A DNA stretch of 63,709 nucleotides, the filler included, from Collodictyon triciliatum (taxonomy: Eukaryota): NCBI GenBank assembly GCA_043381765.1. It is 10 parts of 10 records of this genome, joined end to end, with 100 filler letters (N's around TTAATTAATTAA, not from the genome) between each part and the next. Parts side by side here need not be neighbours in the genome. Positions count along the whole stretch, not along the records: positions 13,931 to 20,796 come from JBHJMP010004196.1; 9 more parts are not named here. One strand, 5' to 3'. A program made the translations under genes and the position numbers. Of the stretch, positions 6,866 to 62,840 are shown one piece after another. The notes beneath the pieces were generated by a model that was not told the DNA's origin, ran no database searches, and was given only the letters and a program-made list of their open reading frames with translations. Numbering within the stretch: position 1 is the stretch's first letter; each line of letters opens with the position of its first letter.

Positions 6866-6965
6866 NNNNNNNNNNNNNNNNNNNNNNNNNNNNNNNNNNN
6901 NNNNNNNNNTTAATTAATTAANNNNNNNNNNNNNNNNNNNNNNNNNNNNNNNNNNNNNNNNNNNN
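6866..6965. other. Artificial contig spacer N44-TTAATTAATTAA-N44 (also at 13831-13930, 20797-20896, 27753-27852, 34703-34802, 41653-41752, 48601-48700, 55547-55646, 62491-62590)
   Basis: An identical 100-nt spacer with stops in all frames recurs nine times. The contigs between spacers are 6866-6844 nt in near-descending order. Confidence 0.99.
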
Positions 6966-7018
<53 letters not shown>

Positions 7019-7100
7019 TTTTTTTTTTGGTTTTTTTTTTTTTTGGTTTTTTGTCGAATAATTGAAAAAAAAAGAACAGACATGATGGAAACAAAGTTAC

Positions 7101-7873
7101 CGAGAACGATAATCATAACCGAAAAGACGATTGAAAAGGTTGGTGACTTTCGCAGCATAACTTTCTGTAATACGAGAGTAAACAATACGCCGAGCCGACG
7201 AAGTGCGACATACATAGGGACATTCACTGCACCAAGTCCCGCAATTCCAAAGAGGACGTTGGCAACAAAAGTCAACGAGAGAGGAAGCACCTTTGCACGA
7301 CCATCACGAGTGGAAATCATAGTGGATAATACAGGAATCATCACGGAGGAGTATTTGTCAGTGAACTGAAGGCTTATCGAAACAAAATAGAAATGCATGC
7401 ATGAAGATGCAACCGCACGGGTGTGACAAGAACAAACCTCCAAGAGAACTGCAACACTGAAGGAAGGGATGCTTATGAAGCCCATCGCACCCATGGCAGA
7501 CGAAACCAGCCACGAAAGCAAGAGCTGACCGAAAGTGATGACAAAAACATGCTGGAACCGGAATGTGACAAAGAGGCTCTTGTTGACAAACACAATGGCG
7601 GTAGCAAGCAGCCCTGGGATGAAAGAAGGCAGGCCAAAGACCGGATTATGGAAAGGACCGACGAGTGCAGACACGCAAAACAGTATCAGACAGTGCCGTA
7701 AGCCTGTGGCCAGCAGAATACGTGGACATTGTGCGAGCTACTGCCAACAGAGAAAGCAGAATGGCGGCTGCGAGGCAGTCTCCCGACACACGCCAACACT
7801 CACCGTAGAGCAGACCAGACCCAAAGGGAGCCCACTGCGAGGCGATCTCCCACAGCCGCGTCCGCCTCCGCAT
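7101..7873 (-). CDS. Nucleotide-sugar transporter, SLC35D-like (3' end truncated by contig edge)
   Basis: Spliced exons MRRRTRLWEIASQWAPFGSGLLYG / LLATAIVFVNKSLF..ITFGQLLL / VLPLSLTFVANVLFGIAGLGAVNVPMYVALRRLGVLFT..SVMIIVLG. The FVNK and VPMxxxLRR motifs and hydrophobic pattern fit SLC35D-type transporters. Introns are GT-AG. Confidence 0.85.
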
Positions 7874-13048: not shown

Positions 13049-13730
13049 AACTTTAGTTTCCATCAGTTCTATCCTTCTTTCTTTCTCGCATCTATCTATT
13101 AGATAAATTTCAGCATATCCGCATAATAAATATACAATAATAATTGTGAGAATTTAGGAATCGCAGAGGCCATTTGTAATCATTCTGTTTTTAAGGCAAT
13201 AATGATATATTCACTCTTTTCTGTAGATAATAAAAGAGCTTAAAAAGATTTTTGCGACATAAATGAACCCGCTCGTCCTTTTTTTCTTTTTTTCTTAATA
13301 GCATCTTTGGTGTAAAAGAGGAATTGTTGTGTCATCATCTTATATGTTCTATATCAAATTTCATGACTGCAAAAACTTTGTTTCATTTCGCTTTATTTCA
13401 CCATTCCTTATTATTCAAGAATATTCCATTCACAACTGGATAGTGTACATACAATCACTCGAGTAAATTTTGATTCATCTCCTTGTCATCCCAGGGTATT
13501 TTCAGGCGGAATTGATGAATGATAGTCATTTTCATGGTTTATAATCACCATTCATAAGAGCGCAGAAGTTCATCTTATCCCTTCGAGAGATGAGACCCTT
13601 TAAAGCTCACATTAGTTTTTTGTTCTCGTTTAGAGTGAGGTACACTGAGGCCCTGTAGAGTAAAATTACAATCTATCTGTTTAACAGGCATCAAGATTTG
13701 ATTGGAGGATTCGATAATATTGCTTCAGGT

Positions 13731-13830
13731 TCTTTATTCTTTATTCTTTATTCTTTATTCTTTATTCTTTATTCTTTATTCTTTATTCTTTATTCTTTAT
13801 TCTTTATTCTTTATTCTTTATTCTTTATTC
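13731..13830 (+). repeat. (TTCTTTA)n heptamer microsatellite at contig end
   Basis: Perfect tandem array running into the spacer. Confidence 0.95.
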
Positions 13831-14252
13831 NNNNNNNNNNNNNNNNNNNNNNNNNNNNNNNNNNNNNNNNNNNNTTAATTAATTAANNNNNNNNNNNNNN
13901 NNNNNNNNNNNNNNNNNNNNNNNNNNNNNNTATATTTTATCTTTTTATTTTGCACCCACCAACCTTCTATTTTTTATAAAAAAAAAAAAAAAAAAAATAG
14001 AGAAAAATACTCGAGGCACTCTGAATCATCATTTATACAAGATTTGCCCATACCTCGTCCATTTGAATATGAATGTTATAGAACACTTGAGCTCCATGCA
14101 TTCTCACGCCTCGCAGTCAAATGAACCATCATCTATAACGAAGATTGGAACAAAGAAACAAAGAAAGAAACAAAGGAGGGGTAAACGATGAAATTCATTT
14201 GAGCTAATAAATGAATAAATAAACGGCAGATGGCCCACCACCACTCGAAGAC

Positions 14253-15052
14253 ATGAGCGAAATGGTTCGCCGCATACAAGAACGTTCGGCACACAAGACG
14301 ACCGCCGTACCCGAAGGCTACTTTGCAGAAAAAGAATCTGTCCTTGTTGCCGTGCCAAAACATAAGGCTGCTGAGCCTAAGAAGGCCGAGTCAGGGCTTA
14401 AGCGCGGATTTTTTAATGCGCCTTCAAAAGAAAAGACTGCAGTAAAGACAAACACATCAGCAGTTCAAATTACATCACAGCAGAGCGCTCCTCAGCATAA
14501 GAAGCAAGATTCAGAGGTGATAGAAATTGTACGTCCAAAGGCCTCTGTTGCAGGCGCCTCCCAGAGCAAAGCGCCAGTGTTTCCTGAACTGCAACAACTC
14601 AATTCGTGTAAGATGGCATCCTTCTACCTGCCCTTAAATATTTTTTGTAACTGGTATTTCCTTGTGGACAATCATTTCTATTAGTACTCCGGTGTTGAAT
14701 ATTCATCTTTTCTTTTTCCTTTAAAACTTTAATTCTTTATTCTTTTTTTTTTTTTGGTTTCTTTTCAACAGTTTATTGAGAGAAAACAAAGCCGAGGAAA
14801 CCGCCTTCGCTTAATTCTTTATTCTTAATTTTTGGCACTAATGCAGCCATGGGCTCCTTGTTCTCATCACCAAAATTCATGGAGAAACTATCTTCCGATC
14901 CCCAAATGCTACGTCTATTTATGGATCCAGAAATACAAACAGCATTTAGTGAGATGGGAAAGGATCCGTCGGCCGTTGTTCGTCACCAGCAGAACCCGAA
15001 AGTAAGGAACTTTTTTGCGCTCTTTGGGGAGTTTCTGTCAAATATTGAATAA
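14253..15052 (+). CDS. STI1/DP-domain protein (two exons)
   Basis: Exon 1 is a low-complexity charged region with GLKRGFF. Exon 2 reads FMEKLSSDPQMLRLFMDPEIQTAFSEMGKDPSAVVRHQQNPKV, the DP-repeat pattern of STI1 domains. Confidence 0.75.
14745..14810 (-). mobile_element. Tiny poly(A)-tailed retroposed insert, family C, copy 1, with 16-bp TSD
   Basis: TTAATTCTTTATTCTT lies at 14729-14744 and 14811-14826. It flanks minus-strand GCGAAGGCGGTTTCCTCGGCTTTGTTTTCTCTCAATAAACTGTTGAAAAGAAACC(A)n, inside the STI1 gene intron. Confidence 0.85.
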
Positions 15053-15237: not shown

Positions 15238-18200
15238 TTATTGCGACATTGGATCAAACACATTTCTCTTTGTCAGATTTTTCATTTGAACCAACTTTTG
15301 TTTGATTTGGCCACCCCTTGTAAGAGGGATAATGAAAGCAACGAACATAAAGTATAATATCCATATGGAGTTCATTCCAATCAGCAAAGCAGCAATCCAA
15401 GACTGTGAGTCGAAAAGATTTGACATGAGTGTAAGGAAAAATGAAACAAAAATGATGTATAAACTGGACAGCTCCATTTGATTCTCGATTTTTGAGTTGT
15501 ATGGCCTGTATTCTTTCTGCATCCAAATTGAGCCCTGAAGTTCATTTTCCAATGATCAGATAGGTTGCCTATAGAGAACCACAATATGGTATGACATATT
15601 GATTATTTTCTAACCTGGATGACAACCACAAGAAGCGAAAATGAAACGGCTGGGTTTGTGTATGGAATGACACTGAGAATAAATGAAAAGGCAATGCGAC
15701 GAGCAATTATAACGAATTCCCAGTGCTTGAAGCTCTAATTGACACATATATGTTTAAATATTGCAAATTTTACTTATTGATATATGATACATAATAATTC
15801 GTTTATACCTCTTTATATGGCAGGTATAAGAAACCGTATCTCGCTCCAGGCTCGTAACCAGGTCTTTCAAACATAATTCTTACTTTCCACCAAAGAAATG
15901 CAGGCAGTCCAACCAGAAACAGAATAAAAACAGGAACAGCTATCGCAACGAGTTTTCGGTACTCACTAGATGCCGGGCTGCATTGAATCCAAGGATTGTG
16001 ATTGAGATACCATTTTTCCTCGCCATTGTCATACACTGTGCATCCAAACACACCAAAAACTTCCCTTGCCACAGAGTAGTAAATGAAAAATAAAAAATTC
16101 AAAGTGATGAACACCGCCTATTAAAATTAAAACATTTTTTTTAAAAAAAAAGATAATTAAAATATGATAGATATAATTCGAAAGCTTTAGATTTTATCAT
16201 TTCTCTAATAAATGCAAGATATGGTGTTGCCTTATTTTTCTTCTTTCCGTATCCGGTATAATATGTAATGGCGCCTATGATTATTAAAATCGGTATTCTT
16301 ATAAAACTGAATAAGAGGTAGTCGAATGTATTGTCTATCCCAAATATACAGGATAAGTTAGGAAACTGAAAAGAACTAAAGGAAGAGGAAAAATCAATAA
16401 ATTTGCTAGCATCCTCTGATTTTAAAAGCCCTGAAGAGATAATGGAAAGCGTTTGAAGGTGTAGCATCGTTATCCTTAGTTTTGCTGTATTACAATAATA
16501 ATAATGATGATAAAAAATAAAAAAAAAATAGGTAAGTAGTAATAGTAAAAATAATAATGCGTATGTAAGTAAATGAGTGATTTCTTGACTGCATGACTGT
16601 AAAAATTGTTCAAAATATACGTATATGTATTAAAGGAATCATTCATACCTGATTTTGATGTTTCTGAGAAATAGAGGTAAGTTGCAAAAACGCAAAGCCA
16701 AATTAAACCAAGTGTAAATGTTGAATAAATGCTTGATTTTTTACATTTCACGCATGATCTACCTTGATTGCCATACCCACTCTGGCATTTCGAACATGCA
16801 TGACCTTCGTATCCCTCTTGGCATAAGTTAGCTATTTCAACTGATATACTCGAATTTGATATTCTGTTTCCAATTAACTTATCACATGATTCAGGTCGAG
16901 GGCACGGGAGAATTGATTTCACTTCAATTACGTTTGGGGAAGCGTGGCAGTATTTCATCGTGACTCCATCTATGCATTCGCATTCTCTAGGGCATTGTAC
17001 GCAATTTTTTCCAAAACCAAAATAGCCAGGTAAACATTTACAAAATTCATGATTGTAATATTCTGGATTTAGACCTACATTTAAGTCGATAAGGCCTGAT
17101 TTTGAAACAATAGATGGGCATATAAAGAATTTTGTCTCATCTTGCAAACTGTATGGACTGCTGTAATTCAAGAAATCTGGAAGAAAATTTGATGCTCCAT
17201 GATTCATAAACGTGTCTATCAAACCTAAATATTCTAGCTTTGAAAAAAGTCTGTATGATTCCGGAATGTATCCGTATATTGGATTTCCGGACAGATCAAG
17301 TGAGCTCCACTTCAATAAATTGGTGAGTTCACCAAGTTTACTGATATTGTTATTATTTAAACGGAGTACCTTGATGTTAGTCATATAATTAAAAATTCTC
17401 CAATTTAATTCCCCATGGAGCTCATTATCATCGAGCAAAAGAATTTCATAATAATAGGCATCATCTTGGGAGCCAGGTGAAATGAAGGTACTAATGTCTC
17501 CAGAAAACAAGTTACTTCTCAAATCAATCGATACCAAGTTTTTTAATTTCCAAAAATTTGGGGGCATGCTCCCAGAAAACTTATTGTGAGATATGATCAG
17601 TGATTTTAGTAGTGACAGAGATTCAAAATAATTTGGAATTGATTCGTGAATTTGATTTCTGGATAAATCTATGTATTGAATTAAGGTAATATTCCAATCG
17701 TTAGGAATCGAACCATTAATTTGATTCTCACTAACATCTAATCTTGTGAGCTTTGGTAGATTAAAAGAGGGCAGTGTCCCGTTTAAAATATTTCTGTATG
17801 TAACTATTTCCTTTATATCTAAGCAACTTCCGAAGCTCGGAAGGTTTCCACCAATTTTATTGTCAGATATAGTAAAGATCTCTATGTTTGACAGCTTTGA
17901 AAAAATGGGGACTTCGCCTAATTTTTTAGAATTACTATTTAATATGCAATATTATTCCGTTATTGTATATTCAATATGGAAAAATTGTATATCAAACTTA
18001 CCCATCAAATTATTGTTATCTAATTGAATTCTTTTTACAATCGGGGTCTTATTGAAATCAGGAATAGTTCCTTTGATGAATGAAGATATTTAAAATTGTT
18101 ATTGGCTAACATATTTTTATATTTAATTTTTAATATTACTTTAATTAAAGCCGATTATTACCTTTTATAGTATAGGTGATATAAAATTGTGATTTTTTAA

Positions 18201-20680
18201 CTTTTTGTTATTTTCTTTAAAAAAATACGTGTTTGTCTCATGGTAGTTGAATATTACTTAAATTTTCCTTTTTGTTTTATTTTATTTCTTTCATGAAGTA
18301 AAAACACACCATTCAATTGGTTATTGAATAGTAAAATTAATTCAACGATTGGCACATATCTGAATGCCGGTATTGCTCCTGTATTACAATAAGTCGGAAT
18401 TTTTCTGTTTATTTTTCAAATAAATGTTTTCGATGGTTCTGTTTTACTTTGAAACGTATTATGCATAATAAAAAAAATTCAATCATAAAAGTACCGGATA
18501 ATTTGTTGCTGAACAACCTTATCTCTTTCACGGATGGGATGTGACTAAAATCCGGAACAGTTCCTATAAAAATTTAAAATATGAAAATAAAAGATAAAGG
18601 GATAAAAAAAAACTTACCATTTAATTGGTTACTAGAAAGACGAATTCTTTCGAGATAGGAAATATTCTGGAAATTTGGGATAGATCCTGCATTTGGGGTC
18701 ATTAGACTTTATTTTATCTTCCAATTGCAAATCTATGAATTGAATAAGAGAAATATATCTCTTTTAATTATGTTTTCATTTACTTGAATCATACCACTGA
18801 ATTGGTTGTCATATAGGTATACTCTCTCTACTCTATGGATTTTATTGAAGTCTGGTAGCTCACCTATTTTTAGATATCAGCATGGTACTTCATTAGAATT
18901 CAAATGAAAATAAATTACCGAAAAAATTGTTTCCTGACATCCTTATACGTCGTACAAAAGTAATATCACTAAAGTTTGGTATTGTTCCTAAATATTATTC
19001 ACTTTAATATACCATTAATATGAGTACATTCTCTTTTTATCGCGTTTCAATAAGGTACAAGGTATAATATTCGGTTCGACACTTAGATTACCTGTCACTC
19101 TGTTGCTGGTCAATCTAATCTCTTCAACTATTGGGATAAAACTGAAATTTGGTAATGTCCCTATAAAAAAATTAAATATTGAGAAACAAAATAGCACAAT
19201 TTACAAAATATAAAATCCAAGATTTTCAAAACTGTATAATTTGAATATGTGTGGGATCAAGGTCCAGTAACAATATCGGTAATTGAAACCACCATTCAGG
19301 TCATTATCATAGAAGGATATCACTTTCACTATCGGAATTCCACTAAAATTTGGAATATCTCCTATATTAATAATAAATTGAGATTATGTAACAGGTATTT
19401 ACTCATCAATATTTAAAGAAAAACCGTAAATTTCTCCGCTGTATATCAAAATGGTCTCGATATTGGGGATCCCGGAAAATTTTGGTATTGGTCCTGAATA
19501 TTTTAGTGAGAGTGATATTTTCAGTGATGCAATCATAAATTTTTCACTATGATGCATAAAAATGATTATTATTGGTTATCTTGAAGATTGAAACTTCAAT
19601 AATACAATCATAAATATTTAGAAAATTTAGAAAAACCTTTCATTTGGTCACTCAACCCAATCGATATACTTTTAATGAAGGAAATTCCAGAGAAATCTGG
19701 AATTGGACCCCCTAAATCGTTTCCATCAATTTTTATGACCAGAATATTAGGTATCCCTTGAAAATTTGGAATCGTTCCGATTAAGTTATTAAAAGACAAG
19801 TCTAGATTCAAAATCATCGGAAGATTAATGTTTTCAATCTTTCCGTGTAAAGAATTGTAGCTCAAATTCAAGGTGTGAATAAAAGGTAGCTTCTCTAAAA
19901 TTAAAAAAGCTGATAGAATATCCCCACGAACGCTGTTATCCGGGAGTGATATTTGATCGACGGGGCACATATTATTCTGCGTATAATGGTTAAAATTTTG
20001 AAAATTTATGTTTATCTTGATCTATCAAATATCACCTCGTAAAATTCATCGAAGCAATCGATATTGCAAGATATTCCAAACCATTCACAAATTGGAATGT
20101 TTTTGTCCTTCCATCCAGTATTACAATTCCAATTGTTTCCTCCAAGAACATCATAAAGCTGAACAAGGAGATGAAATTGATTATTCTCTACATCGTCACT
20201 GTCGATTCTCTCATCACAATTTCTCATCAAGCATGACATCTCCTTTTTGTTGGATCCCTGGAAAATTTTCTCTCCTGATGAGACAAAACTGCTCATATAG
20301 ATGTTGCCTCCATGAAAGAATTCACTGCTAGTGGGTTGGCTCAAGTCTGGTATACTCTTGTTTTCATTTAACGACTCAAAATTGAGCTTATCTTCGTCAA
20401 TCAAGACTGCTTTGCAAGTTTCATCATAATGGTCTAGCAATATCTGAAATGCATCCGGAAGTCTCATTGATAGAAAGTCATCTCTTGTGTACTGGCATCT
20501 AGTTGAGGTATATATCAATCAAATTATTTTTTCTTCCTTTTGGTTTCTGAAAGATGGTGGAGGTTTTAGTGATCAATCCCAAATCATGTAAAAAGGATAT
20601 CTGGTGGAATAAATATACCTATCACTTGAAATTGCAGATAAGGAAGGTGTCGTGGAAATGTATATTAGCATTAAAAGCAT
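15238..20680 (-). CDS. LRR receptor-like membrane protein: hydrophobic N-terminus, plant-type LRR N-cap, long LRR array, Cys-rich region, multi-pass TM domain, no kinase
   Basis: N-cap LYDVLGGNNW..GW..ICEWFGISC; many LxLxxNxxxGxIP repeats; CKCLPGYFG..CQEGYEGHACSKCQSGY; TM region with VFGC..YLNHNPWIQC, YGFLYLPYK..WEFVIIARR and RPYNSKIENQMEL. The ATG at 20680 is preceded by an in-frame AAT run, so the true start may lie off-contig. Confidence 0.85.
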
Positions 20681-20796: not shown

Positions 20797-21290
20797 NNNN
20801 NNNNNNNNNNNNNNNNNNNNNNNNNNNNNNNNNNNNNNNNTTAATTAATTAANNNNNNNNNNNNNNNNNNNNNNNNNNNNNNNNNNNNNNNNNNNNCGAC
20901 GCATCGCTTTTTGTCTGAGTCGCGCAGCAAGAAACGCAAGGAAAGTGACCCGTTGTCCCCTCAAAAGACTCATCCTGTGGAATGAAATAGGATGTAAACC
21001 TTGTCTGAGATAGACGGTTGAAAGGATTCGTCGGAATCGATTTGAGAAGTAACTGCCATGTGCGTACTTTCATCGACCCGACAACTTTATCCGCTCTTCT
21101 GTCAGTCTCGAATACAACCGGAAATCGCGTTGGAGTTGATTCACCTCGGGTAGAATAGTCTGCGTGTGAGAACACTTTCTCTTCTTCCTTCCCTGTTTTT
21201 TTCTTTTTCTTTCCACCCAAAACACAAAAACTCCAACCGCACAATCCGAGGCTTCTGCCCTCTCGTCCACAGCTCATTTTTGTCCCATAG

Positions 21291-26253: not shown

Positions 26254-28998
26254 TCCGATGGGCGCGGTAGTTGTGCCTTTTTTTATTAAAAAAAAAAAAA
26301 GCAATAATAATAATATCAGATACACATCCACTTCAATTTTTGTTTAGGCAGAAAGGAGAACTTTCAAGCCGGAACATACTAAAACGAAAGACATAGATCC
26401 CAACCCTTGCGCCGGCAATATACTTGTTTATCATGGTAATAAGAGATTGTCGAAAAGTAATCATCTCAAGATATAAACACCTAAGCGCTCAGGCAGACAA
26501 AGGCCCTTCTCTTCTTCGAATAAACTATGATCGCAAGAGAAAACGAAAAAGAAAACAGAAACAGAGAACGAAAAAGAAAAAGAAGAAAACGAAACAGAAC
26601 CAGGACCAGAACCAGAAACTTCACGCAGGGAGGGCCGTATTACGGCAAAATGGGCATAGATCCGAGGCGAGACTACCCGCAATGGCCGAAGAATCCGAGC
26701 CGTGCGGAGCGACCCACCAGGACGCGTGTCGCCCCACAAAGCCGGTCTTCTGATCACTCTCGCGCACACCCTCTCTGCCTGCCTCGGCCATGAAATACTG
26801 CACCAGGATCTGGTGGCAGGAGAGAACATTCTATAGAATACACTTATATCTGGATTTCACAATCTCCGAACTAGCCAAGGGAAAAGCGGACAGCCTAAGC
26901 ACCCGGAAATGGCTTCGCGGCGGTGACGTGGCCATTTTTATTTGGTATGAATTCGATTTTATAATTGCGGAATATATAAATTATTATTTATACATTATTA
27001 CATATTGACATTTTAAAGACGATGGTAATATGTAAACTAATCAGAATATAAATTTATATTATTGTGCATCAAAACTAGGTTTCCACAATCGTATTCGTTT
27101 TTTATGACTTTCGATGCACATCAAAAGAAGGATGGAAAAAGTCCAATTTTGATTTCAATTGTGGTGCGTTCAATGGGAATATTCCATTTAGTCACATTTT
27201 TGGACCGGACAGCCACACGCGGCAAAACACACGGTTGAGCAACAAAAGAGACAGAGACAGGAAAAGAGACAAGAGAGATCACGGGAAGGAAAGCCTGAAA
27301 AACCTTCGATCATAATCACAAGCGAAAGCACCCATTCGCATGGAGGAAGACCAGCCACACTGGACATGTTTCGCGCTTATCATCTGATCTGGTTAACTTT
27401 GTGTGACAGGATCGAACTGCGTAAGTTTCCCAGTCAACTCCCAGCGAAAGCACATAATAACCGCACTCAGAACTTCCAGAGCTTCAGCTCAAAATGTTCA
27501 AGTTCAGGTAAAGTAGTTTTTTTTCCCGGTGCTGTTTGCCCAATATTTTCCGCTTTACTTGTAAACCCGACAATTTGTTAATAACCACAGGGATGTGCAG
27601 TATTGGCTCTTCCTAATAGCAGGGCTGTCAGTTGTCTGCTCCAAAGGTTGATTTTCTATTGCACATGTTTTTTTTTAACAAAAAAAAAAAAAAAATAAAG
27701 GGAGTTTTTTTTTTTTTTTTTGAAAATTAAAAAAAAAAATTTTAATTTAAAANNNNNNNNNNNNNNNNNNNNNNNNNNNNNNNNNNNNNNNNNNNNTTAA
27801 TTAATTAANNNNNNNNNNNNNNNNNNNNNNNNNNNNNNNNNNNNNNNNNNNNTTCTTTTTCTTTTTCTTTTTCTTTTTCTTTTTCTTTTTCTTTTTCTTT
27901 TTCTTTTTCTTTTTCTTTTTCTTATTGTATTGTGTCCGTGGTGATTTTCTGCAGTTCGATTCGTGGTCGGCCCGATGAGAGTTGATGATAACGAAAAAGA
28001 AATAAACATAGCAAAGCACTTCACCACTCGAAATGAATTTGAATCGCCTGTTGTCGCTTTTGTTGTTTACTTGGCCGTGCTCGGCCATGAACCAGTTGTT
28101 TTTTCCATCAGCAATAGGTATGAGTCTGGTCAAGTCAAGCAAAGCAGAGCAGCCAACTGATCCGTCCCTTGCGAGGCTCATTTCAAGCGAGTTTGATAAA
28201 TTGTAAGCCCTCCCCGTGGTAGATTGTATTTGAGCCACTTTTTGTTTTTCATTTTTTATTCATTTTTATTATTCGCATATCGCCTTTTCTTTTTCTTTCC
28301 TTTTCTTTTCCTTATTCTTTAATTTTTCTTTTTCTTTTCTTTTTCTTTTTCTTTTTTATTTTTCTTTTTTCTTTTTCTTTTTTCTTTTTCTTTTTTCTTT
28401 TTCTTTTTTATTTTTCTTTTTTATTTTTCTTTTTTATTTTTCTTTTTTATTTTTCTTTTTTATTTTTCTTTTTTATTTTTCTTTTATTTTTCTTTTATTT
28501 TTCTTTTATTTTTCTTTTATTTTTCTTTTATTTTTCTTTTATTTTTCTTTTTGTTATATCCTTCGATATTATTTAACACGCGTAGAGAATTAAGTCTTGA
28601 TTCCATTTTAAACCGTGTTATCACAATATTAATATAAAATATTGATAGCAAATATTAATACATTGCATGCGAATTTATGTAATGTAGATATGTCTTTTCT
28701 TTTCCTATTCCTTTTTCCTTTTCTTTTCCTTTTTCTTTTCCTTTTTCTTTTCCTTTTTCTTTTCCTTTTTCTTTTCCTTTTTCTTTTCCTTTTTCTTTTC
28801 TCTTAAGTTTTAGTTTTAGTTTTATAATATTCGGATGGCACCCATTAAGAAACGTTACTAGATGTTTGTTATCATTAATAAATAAGTATGCTCCGTGCAC
28901 ATCGACAATTGAGCTGATTTCATCTTCGTGTGAATTAATGGCATTGACAATGGCTTCTTTTCTTATTATGATTATTCCAATTATTCTGATCGTGAAGA

Positions 28999-34350: not shown

Positions 34351-34802
34351 CTGAGTAAACGTGTATAGAGGAGACATGTATCATTTAGTACAATATTTTA
34401 GTATTTCAGCATATGTCCGTGCATGTAATTAACGGATTGTAGTTTAATACAAGGGATGCTATTTGTAAAGCGCATTTAAAATTCGATCGTGTGTTTTCTT
34501 TTTCTTTTCTTTTTTTTCTTTTCTTTTTTTCTTTTCTTTTTTTCTTTTCTTTTTTTCTTTTCTTTTTTTCTTTTCTTTTTTTCTTTTCTTTTTTTCTTTT
34601 CTTTTTTTCTTTTCTTTTTTTCTTTTCTTTTTTCTTTTCTTTTTTTCTTTTCTTTTTTTCTTTTCTTTTTTCTTTTCTTTTTTTCTTTTCTTTTTTTCTT
34701 TTNNNNNNNNNNNNNNNNNNNNNNNNNNNNNNNNNNNNNNNNNNNNTTAATTAATTAANNNNNNNNNNNNNNNNNNNNNNNNNNNNNNNNNNNNNNNNNN
34801 NN

Positions 34803-37800
34803 ATTGGAATCGCCTGCGGATATTTGTGTTTTTCTCCTGTTTTGTCTCCCCAAGTTCCATATTCCAGGATATCTTCCTTCATCTCTGCCATTTCTTTCAA
34901 AGCAAAGAACGCCTGTTGTGAATCTCGTTGAGCAAGTTGCTTGAGTTTTTCAAAGTCCTCCGCATTTTTGTAACATTCTACAGTTTTTTCTGCATCTCTT
35001 TCAACGCCCCATCCGTTTTCATAGCACTCAGCGATTATCAGAACAGCCTCTGGATATTTGTATTTCTCGCCAATTTTTCTCCTGCGACTCATAACATTTT
35101 CTTTAATTTCAGCCATTTCTTTTAAAGCAATGAATGCTTCCTTGGAGCCCTTTTGTGCTAATTGCATCATTTTTCCAAAGCTCTCTGATTCTTTTAACCA
35201 TTTGACTGTTTCCTTGAGGTCTCTTTCAACACCCCATCCATTTTCATAACAGTTCGCAACAATTGGAATCGCCTGCGGATATTTGTGTTTTTCTCCTGTT
35301 TTGTCTCCCCAAGTTCCATATTCCAGGATATCTTCCTTCATCTCTGCCATTTCTTTCAAAGCAAAGAACGCCTGTTGTGAATAACGTTGAGCAAGTTGCT
35401 TGAGTTTTTCAAATTCTTGGGCACTTTTGTAATATTCTACAGTTTTTTCTGCATCTCTTTCAACACCCCATCCGTTTTCATAGCACTCAGCCACGATTAT
35501 AAGTACCAGAGGAAATTTGCGTCTTTCTCCTATTCTTCGGTCAGATTCGTCGAAAACATCTTCTTTAATTTCAGACATTTCTTTCAAGGCAATGAATGCT
35601 TCCTTGGAGCCCTTTTGTGAGATTTGCTGAAGTTTATAAACGTCTTCCGCTGCTTTAAATAAATCAATAGCTTTTGAGATATTCCTCTCGACACTCCATC
35701 CATTTTCATAGCACTCAGCTATGATTGAAACAGCTTGTGGATATTCATACTTTTCTCCAATTTTATCTCCCCATGTTTGATATTGCAAAATATTGAATGC
35801 ATCGAGGGAACCTTGTTGCACAAGGTGTCTCAACTCACCGAAATCTAATAATAGCTTCAAAGGGGCTACTGCTCTCCAGTAATTTGCTTTCTCGGTGTCT
35901 TTCTCTACATCCCATCCATTTTCATAACAGTCAGCCATCATCTGAGCTTGGAACTTTGTGTAATTTCCTTGTTCACAATACCTCACAAACTCTTCATCGA
36001 AGGAAGTAGCACCAATCGAAAACAAGAGTGATTTGTTGTTTTGACCCAAATTAGTGACATTCCTCATTTGAATGTCCCCACCCTCCAATTTTCGTGGTCG
36101 AATAGCTGGTATTGTCACCAAATCTATCGTTTCTTCGGCGCTGCTAGAATTTATTTCGCTACTACTTTTGAATGATGGTGTCTCATGTTCGCCGAAATTT
36201 ATCTTGGGACGGTATTTTACCTGGGTGTAAGGTACTTCTGATTCATGAGAGGAAATAATTTGGCTTCCTATTGATATATCCCATATAGATATTGCCTTAT
36301 CCCCACTTCCAGAGGCTAGCCAGGTTTCGCCGTTTGGTCCTTTGATACCGCAAACGCTGAAGACAGCTTCTGTATGACCACCAAATATTTGGACCTCATT
36401 TCCAGTTTCTGTATCCCAGACACGAATTGCTTTGTCTTCACTCCCAGAGGCTAGCCAGCTTTCTCCATTTGGCCCTTTGATACCACAAACACTGAAGACA
36501 GGATTTTCATGACCGCTCAAAATTCGTATCTGCTTTCCAGTGGACACGTCCCAGATGCGTATCGTTTTATCTTCACCTCCAGATGCAAGCCAGATTTCAC
36601 CATTTTTTCCTTGAATACTGCAAATGCTCAAGACACGTTCTGAATGACCTTCCAAAATCTTGACTTTTTGTCCATGGATAATGTCCCAAATGCATATTTC
36701 TCTGTAACTGCCGGAAGCCAGCCAATATTCACCATTAGGTCCTTTAATACTACAAATGCTGCTTACCCAATTGGTGTTGGTTTGCAGTCTTTTGATTTGG
36801 TTTCCAGTGACAATATCCCAAATACGTATAACATTATCTCTACTTCCAGATGCTAACCAATTTTCGCCGTTGGGTCCAAGAATACTACAAACACTGAGCA
36901 CAAGATCGGTGCTTGTATCCTCCAATATTTGGATTTGGTTCCCTGTCGTTCCATCCCAAACTCGAACTGTATTATCATAACTTCCAGATACTAACCATTT
37001 TTCACAATTAGGCGCTTGAATGCTGCAAACACTTGATACTTCATTTGTGTGACCCTTCAATATTTTGACTAAGCCTCCTGTGTTTACATTCCATATAATG
37101 ATTGTGTCATCATAACTGCCAGAAACTAACCAAATTTCTCCGTTTGACCCTGCTGCAGAACATAAAGCACTGACTGATTTTTTGTGAAATTCTAATTTAT
37201 TGTGAGAAATTCCGAATTTAGAATTTTTCATGTTCGTATCACAAAAACTGCAGTCTCCAAGTATTGAATTTGTGAAATTAACGCCAGTCAAATCAGCACC
37301 AGTGAAGTTTGCACCGTCAATTATCGAACAGCTGAGGTTCGCATTTGGAATTTTAATATTTGATAAATCTGTTCCACCAAAGGAAACATTCATGAAATTC
37401 AGGAAGGTAATTGCATCAGATGCAGCCTTTGATTTGGTCTCGTCAGTTCTTGACATGTGTATAATTCGGAATAAGGACGATATTACCCGTTCGCGATTCC
37501 ATTCCTTATCAATTTCTGTATCACCTGATACTTCAATAATAAAATCCTTGACTTTTGTAAACTCAGCGGGTTCTTTATATATTCCAATTTCTTTTGCATG
37601 GAAGGATAAGTATTTGCACGAATTCAAAGTCTTTGTGTGAAACCAACCGATGTTGTCCGCGAACTTGTCCCTCATTATTGACCAGAATTCAATAGCTTCA
37701 TTGTGCTGCTTCAGTTCCCTGTAATTTTTGTCTACATTCTCGCAAGCCACCCAGCAATTCCAGTTGTCATAGGAGTCATGTTCTCCATACCTTATGGCAG

Positions 37801-38809
37801 CTGATTTATGAAGTGTTGTAACGATGTTTAATTCCGCGCTCACTCCTGATGATTTGGCTATTCTTTGACATTGCGAACCGTCTTTCAGAGACATCATAGT
37901 GCATGTTTCACCTCTGATAAGTATAGCTTTCCTGAGGTAATCAACAACTTGGTCAAATCTAAGTAAACGAAATGGGGGTTAGCAGACATAATTTCACAAT
38001 AACTAAATTAAATAATTTAAAATAAACTTTCATGCACAATTTTTTCTTTTATTCGACTCAAGGAATTTTTATACACAATTAGAATATAAACCTCTCGAGC
38101 TCAAAGTTAGTTCTTCCTACATTTTCGAGGGAAGTTGCATAATCTGAATTCATTTCCCCCAAAGTTCTCTTACGGATTTCAAGAGTCTTCGAGTAAGCTT
38201 CCAATGCACTTTTATGACTGTAAAGGATATAATTAGTATTTATTTAAGTATATAATGAATTTTCATATGTTGTTGTTACTCTTTCATCTCATGATAGATG
38301 TCTCCGATTGATTCAAAGCAAGTGACAACGTTCGGATGATTTTCACCGAGAGCGAAAATGAATATATCTAGGGATTTCTGCAACGAAGATAAAGCCTCTG
38401 TTTTCCTATTTGAAAAGAATTCCATCACAATTCACAAATTAAACCAAATTATATTTTATATTAGATTGTGTTCAAATCACCTAGCACTTTCGACATATAC
38501 TTTTGCCATGAATTGAATTGCCGACGCAACAGATGAATGGGTAGATCCTAGCGATTTTTCAAGAATTCCCTTTGCTTTTTCATAAATTTCAATGGATTCT
38601 TCATACCTTATATTAAAATAAAAGTTTAGTGATGTTTACATGAATATTAATTTATATGCATATTACAGTGACAATTAAGTACCTTTTATCCAATAAAAAT
38701 AAGTGTCCATAATTTTGATAAGATATTGCAATGAGGGGATGCTCATTTCCAACTTTCTTTTGGCGTATTACAAAGGATTTTTTGTATTCATCCAAGGCCA
38801 TCCCAATTC

Positions 38810-41652: not shown

Positions 41653-41752
41653 NNNNNNNNNNNNNNNNNNNNNNNNNNNNNNNNNNNNNNNNNNNNTTAA
41701 TTAATTAANNNNNNNNNNNNNNNNNNNNNNNNNNNNNNNNNNNNNNNNNNNN

Positions 41753-43402
41753 TTCGATTTGCTATTCCTTTGAGACTCCAGGGAGCAGCACTAGTTATTT
41801 GAGCCACTCTTCTGCAGATTGCGAGTCTTTTCCGTCCCCTTCTCAAAGTCCCGCGTTTCACCCTGGTTCACCAGACACTTCTAGTTCTGTTGACCATCCT
41901 CGGAGACTTTCGAAACGCGGTGCACCCGAGCAGAAAAAAGGTGAAGCGCCCGAGCTAACTTGCAGGCTAGATCCGCTGGAAGGATCGTACCCCACCTCAG
42001 ACGAAGAGTTTGAACCGCGCAGGAAAAACTCAAAGACTGACCCGATGATTGACTGGGTCATGTGTGATTTTTGCTATAAGTGGAGAAAGCTTCCAAGTTC
42101 TGTTCCTAAATCCTCTATTCCAGACGAGGTAGGAATTACATACTATACTGTTTTTTTCCCTTGCTTCTTTCCCTAACATTTAACTATTCTGTGACGATAC
42201 ATTGTGTTCCATCGAAGACAAGACCCTTTTTTAAAATGCCTGCGAGTTGAAAGTATACATTTTTGTTTTCATCTTATCTCCTTTCATCTTCCATATCTAT
42301 TTGGTCTCTACATTTTCCTTAATATTTTATGTCTCATTGTAGTCGTTTGTTGTGATATTAATGCATCCTTCTCCCTTTACAGTGGACATGCAGTATGTTT
42401 CCCGTCAAGGAACTCGCAGTATGCTCGTTTCGCAATCCTCCCAGGGTAACGGCGTCTATATCCACACCAATACCGCCTAAAAAGAGTGAGTCCATATTCC
42501 ACCAGCTAAATCTCTGTCTCTTGTCCCTGAATCACCTCTATCTTACTGCAACGTCTTCAAAAGCATCGCCTCATTTTCATGCCATACTATCATAGAGATA
42601 AATAGTATCCGATATACTACCTTCTCGACGGATCAGCATTTCTTAATGTTTTAGGCATTGATATTAATTTATCAAAATACAGACACGAGCCAATTTAACT
42701 CGAATCGTCACCAAAGAGAACTTTGTCCTGCTGCACCCAAACCAGTCTCCATATCCCCACCGAAATCAATACTCCGGGGGAAGTCCGTCAAGGAAACACC
42801 CGATGCAATCCAAATTATTCTGAACTACGCGCACGAGCTGGCCACAGACTTACTGGGTCCCTATCAAATAAGAGGGAATCTCCGTCGCCGCACACCTGTG
42901 TGCCCCTCTGCTAGTACCGGAGTTTCTCTTGGCCCAGAAGAAGAGTTCGATCGACTAATACAAGAACAAATAGCTATACACGACTTTGGGTATTTAATAA
43001 CCATCCAAACTTTAATATCACATGCTTAATCTATCTGCATATTTCTATTCGTATTTTATATTTGACCACTTCAGAAACTTTCACATACGGAAGAAAGTAT
43101 TCACTTTGAATTGTATCGTATTACCTTCTTCTCTGATCCAAACTCTCTCCTCCTCGTCCAGATCCACAATGAGAGACCTTTTGACACTTCAGCTTCTGCC
43201 TGAAGAGGCCGACTCAAACACCAAAATATCGAACCACTGGTCTTCAGGGACGCCGTCCAACCCTGGCCCTGTAAGACACGAGACAAGACGGTTCGTCAAG
43301 CTCGTGCTGCAGTGTCTCCACGAATTACCAGAATGCAGACCAACCAGCCAAGAGATACTGACATTCACCAAGGAGTTCAACAGCGAGGATTTAGATGAAT
43401 AG
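41753..43402 (+). CDS. CW-type zinc finger protein (5' end probably truncated)
   Basis: DWVMCDFCYKWRKLP..IPDE splices to WTCSMFP..CS, a zf-CW signature. Further exons lie at about 42681-42988 and 43075-43402. Confidence 0.8.
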
Positions 43403-48571: not shown

Positions 48572-48700
48572 CCAACCAACCAATAAACAACCAATAAACA
48601 NNNNNNNNNNNNNNNNNNNNNNNNNNNNNNNNNNNNNNNNNNNNTTAATTAATTAANNNNNNNNNNNNNNNNNNNNNNNNNNNNNNNNNNNNNNNNNNNN

Positions 48701-51451
48701 TAATCCACGACGTTGACAGTCGGGGCATTCAAATTGATATGCTTCCACAAAATTTGGTCGAATCGATGATATTTGTTTGATGAAGGTGCAAAGAATGTCA
48801 AAAATTCTGACGAATCTATCACCTTCATGAACGTTATTTTCGTATTTTCTAATCTTGACTGAAATGCTCTTCTGGTGGATTTGATACAAAATAATCAAAC
48901 CGTCTCCAGGAAGTAGTTGAATTTCATCCGTTCCTGTTTTGTAGTAAGCATTCAGGTGTATGAACGCCACATCTCTGAAAAACTGGTCGTCATACTGAAC
49001 TCCAGCTTGTGCCCCTTTTGTCAAACGAAGCGCTTGTATGACGACGTTGCTTTTGTCAGAGAGCTGGACTTCACCATTGGTAATTATTTCTACAGAGGTC
49101 TCAGCGATGCAGTTTGACTCTGGTTTTTCATTCCATAACGCTTTGAGGTTTTGGCATTCTTCCATCAGTGAGGGGAAAGCGATACATTCTCTATTGAATT
49201 GGATCCCAAGGCCGAAATGGTCAAAGATTCGAAGAATTGTATTGAATACCTCTTCATCTATTTCTGTATTCAGTTCTTGTTTGATTTGGTCTTTTAGCTT
49301 GCTCAATAAAATGATGCCACTTGTGTCCTTCCCGATGCCTTTGAAGCTGAAGACACAGCGGAAAATGTTGATGAGAAATAGCGGGTCTAAAAATATAATG
49401 TCTTTGATATATTCAAGTGATGAATACCAAACGAGAGAGCCAAGGTCGTGGAGGAATTTGAGAGCACTTTCGCACTCATTTCTGTCCATACCCAGCTTCT
49501 TCTCGGCAAAATCGTAAGTGTCTTGGATTCGTTCGTACTTTGATATTTGGCTTTTCGAATTCAGATAGTCTTTCAGTCCGATATATGTTTTTGGAATGTC
49601 CTTGTTCATGCTATCAAGCGTCATCATTCCTTTGTATATTTCATCCTTCAAAGCTGAAATGTTTGTTCCACTCTTGTTGCTTACTTTCAACTCTGTACTG
49701 ATGAAGATGTGGCGAGCCTTTTCATCCGGTTTCTGCTCATTTTCTTTTTTGATTCGTTCGAATTCTTTTTGCATCTCCTGACCACAAGTTCGATTTTCGC
49801 AATCTTGATGAGTCCCAGCGATAATAATTTTTGAGCCAGGTGCAAAGTCATCAAGCATTTTGACCCAGCGGCTGAGATTATTCTTCTCCTTGTCTTGGTC
49901 GAGTCTGTAAAGGATTAAAACGAGGGCGCCTGATGACAAAAAGAACGGGTGTGTCACTTGGAACTCCTCTTGTCCTCCAAAGTCCCAGATTCGTACAGAT
50001 AGCTTTGTCTTGAATAATCCACCCATCATCGACTCATCGATATCGACATGAGCAATACCATCAGTTCGCTTTCTCTCTTGATCTGTCTCATCATGAAATA
50101 ATCTGGATTTTTGTGTAATTGATTTGATGAGTGTTGTTTTTCCTGCCTCTCCCTCACCCAATAGCAGGAGTCTTCCTTGGGTCCATTTTACAACACCCTT
50201 CACGGAGTTTGATAGGAAATCAAAGACTGCCTCAGACCCATTTCTGATGACGTTCTCTGGGATATTTTTGATGGGATTTCCCTGGATATTCAGTCCCCAA
50301 CGCAATTTTTTCAACGTCCCCATAATTGAAGGGATTTTTTCAATCTAAGTGTTTTTTTGCTGAGTGTTTTTTTTGTGTGATTTGTCCATATAAATTATCG
50401 AAGAAATAAATGGAGAATGTAAATAGAAAAGTGTTTGACCTTGTTGTTGGATACGTCCAGTTTTTGAAGATTTGCAAGGTTTGCTATGGCATCTGGGATG
50501 TGTGAAATCTGGATTCGTATTGGTGACAATTCATGTAAGTCTCGACCTTGTCGCTTTTTTACAACACTTTTAAAAAATAGTTGGAATGCTATATTTTCTA
50601 TTCGAAGAATATTGAAAAACCTGGTTGTTTGATATGCTGAGACCCATAACAAGGGGTAATTTACAGATCAATTCGGGAAATTGATGGAACTTTTTTTTTT
50701 AAAAAAAAATATGTAAACAATCAGAATAGTGAGACTGATATGACATTCAATGAATTAGCTGTTGAAAAGTGATTATAATAATGTTAATTCAATAGACCTT
50801 GTTGTAATCGATTCTGATTAGCGTAACTCCTCCCAAACGAGATATCTCGGAGGGCAATGACGATAATTGATTGCGGCATAAAAAAAATTGATTAAGTCTT
50901 GTCAAACACGATATTCCATGGGGGATGGATGAAAGGTTATTTTGGAGAATATTAAACTCTGTCAAGCCGGTCAAATATGAAAGCTCTGGAGGCAAATTGG
51001 TGAGCTTATTTTCTGAAGCACAAAGGTATGTCAAGCCAACCAGGCAAGATATTTCTGGAGGCAGGGATTTTAGGTGATTGTTACGAATACCGAACCATTT
51101 TAGAGCCTTTAGCCTAGATATCTGAGGCGGTAGATTCGACAATTGATTGTGTTGAATACTGAGAAATGTCAGATCTGTCAAGTATGATATTTCTGGTGGA
51201 AGAGAGGTAAGCTTGTTTTTCGAGACACTGAGCCACCGGAGACGAAGTAAGTCTGATATTTCTGGAGGCAGAGACAATAGGCCACCATCGAAAAAGTCCA
51301 AATGCAACAAACAAGAGAGGGATAATACTCCTTTAGGAACAATAGAACCTGTTTGGCCGCTCAGATCAAGAAATGTGCGGTTTCGAAGAACTGAAACATG
51401 TGAGTCCCCAGTAATCTTTCGGAGATCTTCTAAATACTGGTTAACGGTCAT
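48701..51451 (-). CDS. Roco protein (LRR-Roc-COR), 3' end truncated
   Basis: Exons are 50798-51451 (LPPEISxLxxL 23-aa LRRs), 50621-50689, 50440-50508 and 48701-50344. Roc motifs are GEGEAGKTT, RTDGI, WDFGGQEEFQVTHPFF, GTHQD and VSNK. COR motifs are IPKTY..LKFLHDLGSL..IFLDP. Confidence 0.93.
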
Positions 51452-53462
51452 GCGGGAAAGTGAAGTGGGTGGTACGGGAGGGTTGCGGCGGCTGTCTGGA
51501 TGAGTTTTCTGGGTAGTACGTTTTTTTTTTTAAGCCCTGCGTCGATCAGTTTCTTGACTGTGCTAGAAAAAAAAAAAGGCTGAGAAAGGTTGGGTTCTTG
51601 CAAGAAAGAAGGTATGGCCTCACAACGTCTCACCCAGCCCGACCGGAGGTTGTTCAAAAAACCACACAAAGGCGTGAGAATATTCAGTCAAAAAAATCTA
51701 ATGTGGAAATATATTAATTCGCCTCCTGTTTGTCTCCTCGTAATTCCCTATGTGGTTCGATTCTCGGTGCTTTTTTTCTTTGCCCGATGCAAATTTTGGG
51801 AGTTTAGGACTCACAGGATATTTTTTTCTTTATTTGCGAGCGCGGGTAGAATAGCAAACACAAGTAGGAGATGTTACTGTGGAGAGGCTGGGACTGGAGA
51901 GAAATGATTGACGGCGAGTTGGTCAGGTGGGGGGTCCAACTGGTTGATAGGCTTTGTGGGTAGCAAGTGATTGAATATGTTGTGAGAGATATCTTACGAC
52001 ACTTTCACACATCTCTGTTTGCTAGCTGTTAGACAAGCGGATGATTCGGGCGTGGTTTGGCACTATGCTCAAGGAAGCTGTATTTCACGAAGATTACCAG
52101 CCTAGATGAATCGATACCTCGTTCAGTCAAATAGTTGGAGCGAGTAAAAGGCGCCTGGACGGTGGGTGGCTAAGTTTATTCAAGCAAGACATTCTATGGC
52201 ATGCACGCAATCTTACAAATACTGTTTACGTTTATATCAAAACGGCGAAGTGTCGACCAACTTGCTCATGAACCTAGCAGCGATGACGTTGAAGCACAGA
52301 CGAGAAGAATTAATAAACAGCAGTATGACTGTACAGGCGAAGAATCATACATTTTGGGATACAGTAAGTGCTCTACGAATACAGCAGAATACGAATTGAT
52401 GCAAATACATGAATTATGAGTAATTTTCTATAATATTATTGGTGCGATGAGCGTTTGTTCCAAATTTATAAACGAATGATGTTGTAAGCGGTGGTAAATG
52501 GGAGTAATAAGAACGCGTGAAAGTCCTTTTCTTCTTCAAGTATTACGAGTCTGTATGGTACATTGTTATTCTCCAAGAACGTACCGTCAGGAGTTGCGCT
52601 GAAGCCACGGGGCCGCTCCTCACTAATTCGTAATGCGCCGCCGCGTATAGTCGTTTCAAAATAGCTTAACAGTTTGTGTAGTGACTACATTCAGTAGTTC
52701 TCTTCCCAGCGTGGAAAGTTCCAACTGTGGAGCACCACATGCCTCGGCAGTCCCAATATGAGAAAGATTTTCTCTGCGCGAAGCTATGGAGCCATCTTTG
52801 ATATCTTTTTTTATATATATATATTCTATATACCTAGAATAGAAAGATATCAATCTGATAAACTCCACAGCGCCGCACTTAACTTTCTTAACTTGCTAAG
52901 GATAACCTGCGTGAATGAATCGATGATGAGGGGATATGCATGAAACTATATAAATAACACTAATTGCTACTCTCTCAACAAAAAAAAAATTAGCTGGAAC
53001 AATGCCTTCCAAAACGTTCTCTTCCTAGAATCTTTGGATTCCGCACAAAACACACACGACCCCAAACCCCACAGACAATCGCATCAAAAGTTCATCCATA
53101 CCATACCAGAAAATTAATATGTCATACTAAAAATACTGCATATATGACGCAAACATTATCCTTTTTTGGGGGTTATCCCCAAATCCGGAGGGATACCCTT
53201 CATTCGGTATGTTTTCGCGGTCTTTATCGTCTGTGGCTCAGTTCTGCAGATTCACAACCAAACGCGCTGTGTGCGCATCAGACTTGTCTGCCATTCGCCT
53301 TGATTTCTGCTCGAATAGATTCTGTTCTTCGTTTCCTTTTTTCCTTTGTTTTTTCTTGATTTTTTTGGCTTTATTTTGTTTTTTTGGTTATTTATTATTT
53401 ATGAGTCCATTTCTAACCCAAATACTGGCTATTGAAAAAGAAAGGAAAGGGGAGTTTGGAGA

Positions 53463-61884: not shown

Positions 61885-62590
61885 TGGTTATGTGCCTTCT
61901 CCGAATCTGGTGACTGCATTGATGATCCCCAACACTACAAGGTTTGATGTATTTTCCTCTTTGTTCGATTCAATACTACAAACTATGATCTTAACAGCTA
62001 CCGAGAGGCCAAAGGCTAGTAGCCAAAGTCATTTGACAGGCTGTGATCTATTCGAGTTTAGCCAGAATAATAATGATTAAAAAAATAACGCTCTCCGTGC
62101 CGCTCCAATGGCTGGTTTTTGGGGGGTTCACTTTTGTTTCCACTTTCTGTGGTGACCAAACACCATTATGATCAAACGAGTGCACTTTCTTCTGCAATAA
62201 TATAATACCGGGACTCGAACTCAAGGAATGGAAGAGGGGAACTGCTGTGGGGCGCTTGTCGAGGTAAAGCACCGCTACATGGCGTTCGAGGAGTTCATGG
62301 ATAAGGTTTATATGGATCCAAGCTATCGTTTTTTGATCGTTTCTTTTTTCGTTTCATTTTTTCTATTTTCTTTGTCTTTGTCTTTTTCTTCTCTTTTTCT
62401 TTTTCTTTTTCTTTTTCTTTTTCTTTTTCTTTTTCTTTTTCTTTTTCTTTTTCTTTTTCTTTTTCTTTTTCTTTTTTTTTTTTTTTTTTTNNNNNNNNNN
62501 NNNNNNNNNNNNNNNNNNNNNNNNNNNNNNNNNNTTAATTAATTAANNNNNNNNNNNNNNNNNNNNNNNNNNNNNNNNNNNNNNNNNNNN

Positions 62591-62840
62591 CCACCACCTT
62601 CGCTGAATGTTGCCCTGGCCAAGCTTGTAGAGACCGCCAAGAATAGCGACAGTCGAGACAGCGAAAAGGACAGACGAGGCTCACGGTCCGCATGCACCGA
62701 GCAAGGCGAACGCAGCATTCCGCCTGCTGCCGGCAAGCGGACCTGGTGTTCCCTCGTCTGTCCTTTTCGCTGTCTCGACTGTCGCTATTCTTGGCGGTCT
62801 CTACAAGCTTGGCCAGGGCAACATTCAGCGAAGGTGGTGG
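62591..62840. repeat. Perfect 89-bp inverted repeat starting at the contig edge
   Basis: 62591-62679 is the exact reverse complement of 62752-62840, with a 72-nt spacer. Confidence 0.95.

Follow-up and report, generated by a model that had tools for sequence, protein, structure and literature searches.

Nine tandem 69-nt leucine-rich repeat exons, probably an old duplication array, in a receptor-like gene of Collodictyon triciliatum

The stretch of DNA analysed here (the window) is 63,709 nt long and consists of ten parts of the genome of Collodictyon triciliatum (assembly GCA_043381765.1), joined end to end with filler. In the part that comes from JBHJMP010004196.1, a minus-strand gene is predicted to encode, in this order, a signal-peptide-like start, a leucine-rich repeat (LRR) cap, about 20 LRRs, a Cys-rich module and a multi-pass membrane domain. 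Nine of the LRRs are encoded one by one in nine consecutive short exons. We built the gene model from open reading frames (ORFs), splice signals and tblastn searches with homologues. Its frame of 1244 codons is unbroken over the 16 splice junctions, and the model is collinear by tblastn with the homologous protein P0122. The coordinates of the gene and its parts are listed in Table 1.

The nine short exons were cut out and translated. They lie on the minus strand exactly where the initial annotation had placed them, and each is exactly 69 nt long. The GT-AG borders claimed there were borne out, with AG before and GT after every exon, and the peptides quoted as examples were correct. All nine exons have a G at both ends (AG/G...G/GT, the slash being the exon border) and are open in that frame alone. 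Each exon holds 23 codons, with its border in one and the same Gly codon (9/9 exons). The shared split codon had also been proposed, and we found it as G/GN at 10 of 10 junctions. When joined, the exons give 621 nt, which translate without a stop into 207 aa, that is, nine plant-type LRRs of 23 residues with the pattern G-x-[ILV]-P-x-F-x-x-[IV]-x-x-[VIL]-x-x-[IV]-x-[LIFM]-x-x-N-x-[LFIV]-x. The residues G1, P4 and F6 are invariant in the nine units, which are otherwise dominated by I or V at positions 9, 12 and 15, and by L17, N20 and L22. Plant-specific (PS) LRRs have the consensus LxxLxLxxNxLxGxIP and a period of 23-25 residues, and by sequence the nine units fit both. The array is exon-modular: whole LRRs as exons, a constant border and a single intron phase.

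There are 130 open AG-N69-GT segments in the window (75 minus-strand and 55 plus-strand). Of these 130, exactly nine have an x[ILV]PxF start, and they are the nine exons. Positions 17901-19700 hold 12 open segments of this kind, compared with a mean of 0.61 and a maximum of 5 in 500 mononucleotide shuffles. For exon 5, an AG/GT pair offset by 3 nt (19358-19290) fits too. Introns 3-12 are 54-239 nt long, all GT-AG and all in phase 1 (10/10), and their GC content is 15-28%, compared with 35% in the exons. The nine exons are spread over all three genomic frames. Retention of any one of the ten introns would introduce one or more in-frame stops, and the length of five of them is not divisible by 3. 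Therefore, splicing is needed to read the array. The remark in the initial annotation that the ORF track misses almost all of the array was roughly right. Among stop-to-stop ORFs of at least 40 aa, exon 7 is found in none; the other eight exons do lie in ORFs, of 44-61 aa, only two of which reach 60 aa. Gene finders easily overlook 69-nt exons between AT-rich introns, so that the annotation of this receptor family is probably incomplete.

Table 1. The LRR gene of the window and its parts (positions along the whole stretch).
Feature	Coordinates	Strand	Size and content	Basis
Whole gene	15238..20680	-	17 exons, 3735-nt coding sequence, 1244 aa; array = exons 4-12	
Exon 1	20619..20680	-	62 nt; short hydrophobic leader, putative start	sequence and collinearity with P0122 N-terminus
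Exon 2	20036..20498	-	463 nt; N-terminal region, CxWxGIxC cap resembling LRRNT_2	Pfam sub-threshold; tblastn
Exon 3	19637..19976	-	340 nt; five LRRs	gene model; Pfam
Introns 3-12 (span)	17918..19636	-	ten phase-1 Gly-splitting introns	
Exon 4, unit 1	19425..19493	-	69 nt	
Exon 5, unit 2	19293..19361	-	69 nt	
Exon 6, unit 3	19092..19160	-	69 nt	
Exon 7, unit 4	18919..18987	-	69 nt	
Exon 8, unit 5	18795..18863	-	69 nt	
Exon 9, unit 6	18618..18686	-	69 nt	
Exon 10, unit 7	18495..18563	-	69 nt	
Exon 11, unit 8	18310..18378	-	69 nt	
Exon 12, unit 9	18002..18070	-	69 nt	
Exon 13	16649..17917	-	1269 nt; intron-less LRRs, Cys-rich module, first membrane helix	Pfam
Exons 14-17	16484-16231, 16117-15809, 15734-15615, 15534-15238	-	multi-pass membrane domain	gene model; tblastn

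The LRRs that flank the array lie in long exons (exons 3 and 13), as the initial annotation had it. In exon 3, the last two of the five LRRs belong to the GxIPxF subtype of the nine and have no intron between them. The LRRs of exon 13 include this subtype and others, all without introns. Pfam families LRR_8, LRR_4 and LRR_1 were matched in the long exons (5.2e-15 for LRR_8 in exon 13). The cap in exon 2 matched LRRNT_2 with E = 0.025 and 15.3 bits, below the 20.7-bit cutoff, and LRRNT_2 was also below the cutoff in the homologue P0246 (E = 0.001, 19.7 bits). By tblastn, exon 2 matches residues 96-163 of P0122. Exon 1 has a putative start codon and signal peptide, as suggested by the sequence and by collinearity with P0122. 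A long (AAT)n microsatellite extends from just upstream of this start codon to the contig edge (20700-20796), and the contig stops about 120 nt upstream of the start codon.

On the C-terminal side, the match of exon 13 to the Cys-rich family DUF7630 was weak (18 bits, below the 27-bit cutoff); the same family was above the cutoff in the homologue P0244. The region of exons 14-17 matches residues 969-1308 of P0122 by tblastn. No Pfam family was matched by the C-terminal membrane domain, exon 15 included. In the Atlas, the domain fell with protist clusters at 0.92-0.95, and TRP (PF06011) was assigned to just 12% of their members, which makes it a lead only. Intron 14 (16230-16118) has no fitting GT donor. 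A GC-AG border (AAG/GCAACA...TAATAG/G) is the sole one that preserves both the frame and the homology, and we take it as the probable border from sequence and collinearity. In D. rotans (Diphylleia rotans), the divergent tail of P0126 starts with Ala (GCN), which fits a GC donor as in intron 14 of the window gene and hints that this donor may be conserved. A gene with an STI1/HOP DP domain (14780-15049) occupies 14223-15052 on the plus strand and converges on the 3′ end of the LRR gene (15238).

As a structural stand-in for the spliced window protein, we used the AlphaFold model of the homologue P0124, built with a ten-row family alignment. The mean predicted local distance difference test (pLDDT) score of this model was 69. 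The LRR part covers approximately residues 160-740; its block pLDDT is 83-97 as far as about residue 640 and from there on mostly 68-96, and the Cys-rich and membrane parts are of low confidence (pLDDT mostly <60). In the model, the strands follow a strict 23-residue period, and the main strand occupies unit positions 14-16. A second short strand, present in seven of the units listed, runs from position 21 to position 1 or 2 and ends on the intron-split Gly. A second short beta strand after the NxL segment is a feature of PS LRRs, and the modelled strand of P0124 seems to be of this kind. Given the strand period and the Gly at the strand end, each 69-nt exon would correspond to one full turn of the solenoid, cut at its side. 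The initial annotation had described a conserved framework with widely varying beta-strand positions. The concave face of the nine units is indeed variable, but not beyond their other non-framework positions: the mean entropy at the concave x positions 13, 14, 16 and 18 was 1.92 bits, compared with 2.09 bits elsewhere. Thus, the binding face is without extra variability.

The closest sequenced homologues of the window gene are from D. rotans. For exon 13, the best matches of similar length were the short-contig proteins P0001 (48% identity) and P0002 (61%), followed by plant receptor-like proteins at approximately 28-31% identity. Among longer proteins, five of the stronger matches, the top three included, were ORFs of D. 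rotans Trinity transcripts, named by source. The spliced model could be aligned globally over about 1200 residues with P0122 (40% identity), P0246 (37%) and P0244 (34%). As the model aligns with D. rotans transcript proteins, the splicing that we propose gives the same uninterrupted 23-residue array as the mRNAs of the relatives. Within the array, P0246 had no gap of 8 aa or more against the spliced model, P0122 had 68 additional aa (approximately three units), and P0244 had about 245 additional aa in blocks of 20-22 or 68 aa. At the protein level, where the comparison was made and the unit-sized blocks measured 20-22, 46 or 68 aa, copy number differs by whole units among related genes. Searches for paralogues in the window by tblastn with P0001, P0002 and P0041 returned this one gene alone, and metagenome scans with a single protein or with alignment A1 gave no confirmed genomic locus of a relative.

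We also surveyed isoforms in seven D. rotans genes, comparing the members of 90%-identity clusters with their representatives or longest forms (21 comparisons; 8 + 2 + 11). The N-terminally truncated piece P0245 stood outside these comparisons, and five bacterial members of the P0279 cluster, 54-55 aa long, were dropped. Isoforms had been named in the initial annotation as a place to look for variable use of the exons. In these relatives with transcript data, none of the 21 comparisons showed whole-unit variants, that is, an internal difference of a multiple of 23 aa. The pairs P0247 and P0246, and P0252 and P0163, diverge right after a unit-initial Gly, exactly as a retained phase-1 Gly intron would give. 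The forms P0243, P0124, P0126, P0163 and P0123 diverge within one residue of the positions of window introns 2, 14, 14, 15 and 16, respectively. Further differences were a 5-aa one at the N-terminus and, outside the regular units, replacements of segments 12-21 aa long. In most cases, the difference has the appearance of intron retention and not of exon skipping. Judging from these breakpoints, the Gly-codon intron is present in the family beyond the window gene, including at a junction that is intron-less in the window gene.

The divergence among the nine exons bears on the age of the array. Their nucleotide identity averaged 52% (range 43-65%). By codon position it was 54%, 69% and 34% at the first, second and third positions, with 27% expected from composition. 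The third positions are so close to chance that the synonymous sites are saturated. Similarity between introns was absent among introns 3-12 (local score 13.1, compared with 12.8 in shuffles), and no decayed exons were found within them (best score 3.2, compared with 44-57 for the real units and a background top of 9.0). Near-chance third positions and introns without resemblance to each other indicate that the array is old. Likeness among the nine units was 9.58 of 23 residues, compared with 6.98 to the five intron-less flanking units, and a gap of this size was reached by 13 of 5000 label permutations. The exon ends before the introns vary (CG, TG, AG and GG) and have no common proto-splice site. 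Ten separate insertions at proto-splice sites are therefore unlikely, and duplication fits better.

We think it likely, though well short of certain, that in this receptor-like gene of a freshwater protist the nine exons are an old array made by exon duplication, and that exons 4-12 are spliced constitutively. A 69-nt exon and its intron would have been tandemly duplicated together long ago; unequal crossing-over within introns is one way in which this could have happened. Duplication of exon and intron together would automatically result in symmetric phase-1 exons of equal length. The copies would then have diverged over a long time, and related genes would have come to differ by whole units. 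Some of the per-unit introns might have been lost or gained, leaving the end units inside long exons. At present, the array would most likely be spliced as a single fixed form. Its modularity would be the footprint of solenoid growth and not a splicing switchboard.

Several observations weigh against this interpretation. No RNA contig of the window organism was found over the array; the contigs of run X1, which was taken as RNA by guess, fell within 16785-17554 and had no splice joints. Because the D. rotans isoforms come from Trinity assemblies and were clustered at 90% identity, rare skipped forms could be missing among them. The exon structure of the D. rotans genes was deduced from protein breakpoints alone. 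The break between P0248 and P0126 falls within an LRR, away from the Gly. P0275 and P0363, which are 99%-identical Trinity genes, differ by 12 aa from a unit-initial Gly (residue 548/549). This difference could reflect an alternative acceptor 36 nt into an LRR exon or an allelic deletion, and there may thus be some flexibility of splice sites at unit borders. Unit-by-unit orthology with P0246 was weak, the positional counterpart being the best match in 4 of 14 units. With such weak positional orthology, later homogenisation or lineage-specific turnover of units may have been involved besides duplication. Finally, D. rotans has an intron-like break between units where the window gene has none, and the present nine exons may be a leftover of intron loss, not of a separate burst of duplication.

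This last point leads to an alternative that we regard as possible, if clearly less probable than the duplication array as set out above. The ancestral units might all have had the Gly-codon intron, and the window gene might have lost introns at both ends of the array, which fused the end units into exons 3 and 13; the nine would then be the units that retained their introns. Such a history is compatible with an origin by duplication and differs from it in when and where. It is favoured by P0247, which breaks after the Gly between units aligned to the two intron-less units of exon 3, and by P0252, another D. rotans gene, which breaks likewise. In addition, the predicted protein P0001 opens with a read-through tail, directly followed by a G-T-I-P-S-F unit that aligns with the beginning of exon 13. 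However, the nine units are more alike mutually than to the flanking units by the permutation result given above, which fits a later burst, although neighbouring units can also be homogenised.

The initial annotation had stated that any subset of the nine exons could be skipped or duplicated in frame. This is true as arithmetic: all 55 forward donor-acceptor pairs give GGN, and the Gly is rebuilt in 55 of 55 combinations. It raises the possibility of a cassette array, in which the nine symmetric exons would be variably included or skipped, giving receptors with varying LRR number and order. There are precedents in the brown-algal ROCO genes, with splice variants of 72-bp LRR exons (PMC11378527), and in the skipping of a 171-bp exon of human NLRP3 (PMC6642158). 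The 12-aa difference at the unit-initial Gly in D. rotans also hints at flexible choice of acceptors. However, whole-unit differences were seen in none of the 21 isoform comparisons over the seven D. rotans homologues, and most of the D. rotans variants look like retained introns that truncate the protein. Genomes with short introns mostly use intron definition, and in them retention dominates over exon skipping; the introns of the array are short (54-239 nt) and in the range where skipping is uncommon. Moreover, variability at the binding-face positions was not above that at other non-framework positions. The cassette diversity implied by the in-frame arithmetic is thus unsupported, and we consider a cassette array unlikely. 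A stronger form, in which each exon would be included independently to give up to 2^9 = 512 in-frame forms of a Dscam-like receptor for varied prey or microbe recognition, appears a little more doubtful still. If the array were such a cassette, it would be a Dscam-like diversity device in a deep-branching unicellular eukaryote, with one predator receptor varied in length and surface.

Two further explanations are very improbable. Ten independent intron gains into the same Gly codon of an intron-less array, by proto-splice-site targeting or a burst of introners, would agree with the intron-less units of the same subtype in the same gene, but the bases before the introns show no conserved proto-splice site, the introns lack mutual similarity, and duplication predicts just what is seen, the same phase and codon at 10/10 sites. 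A misassembled repeat or an unexpressed pseudogene might be suspected from the N linkers that join the contigs of the window (one of them about 120 nt upstream of the start codon), from the lack of RNA seen on the array, and from a 1-nt insertion in an X1 contig, but the frame is uninterrupted over all junctions, independent metagenome DNA contigs match the gene, and X1 contigs lie on exon 13.

The reads and contigs behind these statements are as follows. Contigs of run X1 cover 16906-17554 of exon 13. One of them, at a low depth of 4.5, carries an extra T at 17538 compared with the window; the extra base would put the sequence out of frame, and an error or another copy is a likelier cause than a genuine difference. 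The loose end of one X1 contig is presumably a template-switch cDNA oligo. DNA contigs from freshwater and lake metagenomes match intron-exon pieces of the gene at 151/151 and 247/247 nt, and over 150-151 nt with one or two differences. A lake-metagenome contig over 18787-18937 (exon 8) has one difference, which is intronic, and a contig over 18558-18707 (exon 9) has two, both in intron 9. All three differences are therefore intronic (introns 7 and 9), too few for a test of selection. The only joint reported came from run X2, a DNA metagenome; it runs from 18599 to 19605 and was considered as splicing and rejected; one side is only 22 nt, the ends are GG..TA, and both lie in AT-rich introns. 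We read it as a chance or foreign match.

The layout of one LRR per symmetric exon is known from plants, brown algae, Tetrahymena and vertebrates, with phase 2 stated for all of them except the NLRs. Gonadotropin-receptor introns are also of phase 2, as cited in PMC11378527. The window array lies outside the phase-2 families of 72- or 90-nt LRR exons: its introns are of phase 1, its exons are 69 nt long and the split codon encodes Gly.

In Tetrahymena, LRR genes have arrays of 90-bp exons, more than 98% of them in phase 2, which were interpreted as clonal exon expansion (PMC6564038). The window array resembles them in its exact-length LRR exons, its extreme bias to a single phase and a junction codon common to neighbouring exons. 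The Tetrahymena exons differ in being 90 bp and phase 2, in their tens of thousands of copies genome-wide and in their association with retrotransposons (PMC6564038), whereas the window has only one such gene, with a single array of nine phase-1 exons of 69 bp.

The LRR-ROC-COR (ROCO) genes of the brown algae Ectocarpus and Saccharina have 72-bp phase-2 LRR exons, and splice variants with different sets of LRRs were reported (PMC11378527). Similar to the window gene, they comprise tandem symmetric exons of equal length with one LRR each (there 23 aa plus the junction residue), and growth by exon duplication is proposed for them, together with shuffling (PMC11378527). The brown-algal ROCO proteins are, however, cytoplasmic GTPases, while the window gene has 69-bp exons in phase 1 and a predicted extracellular ectodomain of plant-type LRRs, and no splice variants were seen. 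The window has a ROCO-type gene of its own (minus strand, 48701-51529), with an LRR_8 block (246 aa) confined to one exon (50792-51529) and with Roc and COR-A at 48701-50344; a linker cuts its 5′ side. In contrast to the brown-algal genes, it is without per-repeat LRR introns. As its LRRs lie in a single exon, a separate exon for each repeat is not the general rule in this DNA.

Rice LRR receptor kinases have 72-nt exons with one LRR each, and their phase-2 introns interrupt the codon of the first Leu in xxLxLxx, which lies in the beta strand (PMC3050792). They share with the window gene the LxxLxLxxNxLxGxIP consensus, the short one-repeat exons and a proposed origin by exon duplication (PMC3050792). 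The plant proteins have a repeat of 24 aa and a kinase; the window gene has a repeat of 23 aa and no kinase, but a Cys-rich module and a multi-pass membrane domain. Phase 2 within a Leu in the plant genes, compared with phase 1 within a Gly about six residues later in the window gene, implies that the intron positions are not homologous. Human NLRs have 171-bp exons with two LRRs each and a border within the beta sheet, and skipping of NLRP3 exon 5 was shown experimentally (PMC6642158). The strict exonic modularity of the LRRs and the constant border position, a precondition for in-frame skipping (PMC6642158), are shared with the window array.

The features that appear to be new here, judged from sequence, are the phase-1 introns, the 69-nt exons and the position of the intron in the Gly of NxLxG/xIP. 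The combination of LRRs with phase-1 exons of 69 bp was not found in the literature searched, although other phases or exon lengths may be given in the supplements to PMC6564038 and PMC11378527. Among the papers listed on Collodictyon or Diphylleia, none mentions leucine-rich repeats. In a lineage related to Diphylleia (CRuMs), the array appears to represent an independent origin of the layout in which every symmetric exon holds one LRR. Its distinct intron position supports the idea that LRR solenoids have grown repeatedly by exon duplication, whatever the starting intron.

Across the whole stretch, GC content per 2 kb varies between 29% and 49%, so that adjoining segments need not be linked or even share an organism of origin. 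The 12-mer TTAATTAATTAA, which we take to be an all-frame stop linker, lies between runs of N, for example at approximately 20797-20896. The TTAATTAATTAA motif appears as runs of X in the ORF translations at 6910-7737, 13659-13886, 27801-28259, 34751-37978, 41709-42176, 48653-50344 and 62535-62933. On the minus strand at 34802-37978, an open frame of more than 1000 aa contains WD40 propeller repeats followed by many Sel1 repeats according to Pfam, and a linker cuts its C-terminal end. Another minus-strand ORF, at 55891-57072, has arrestin N and C domains and lies in the most GC-rich segment (49%), compared with 29-36% around the LRR gene.

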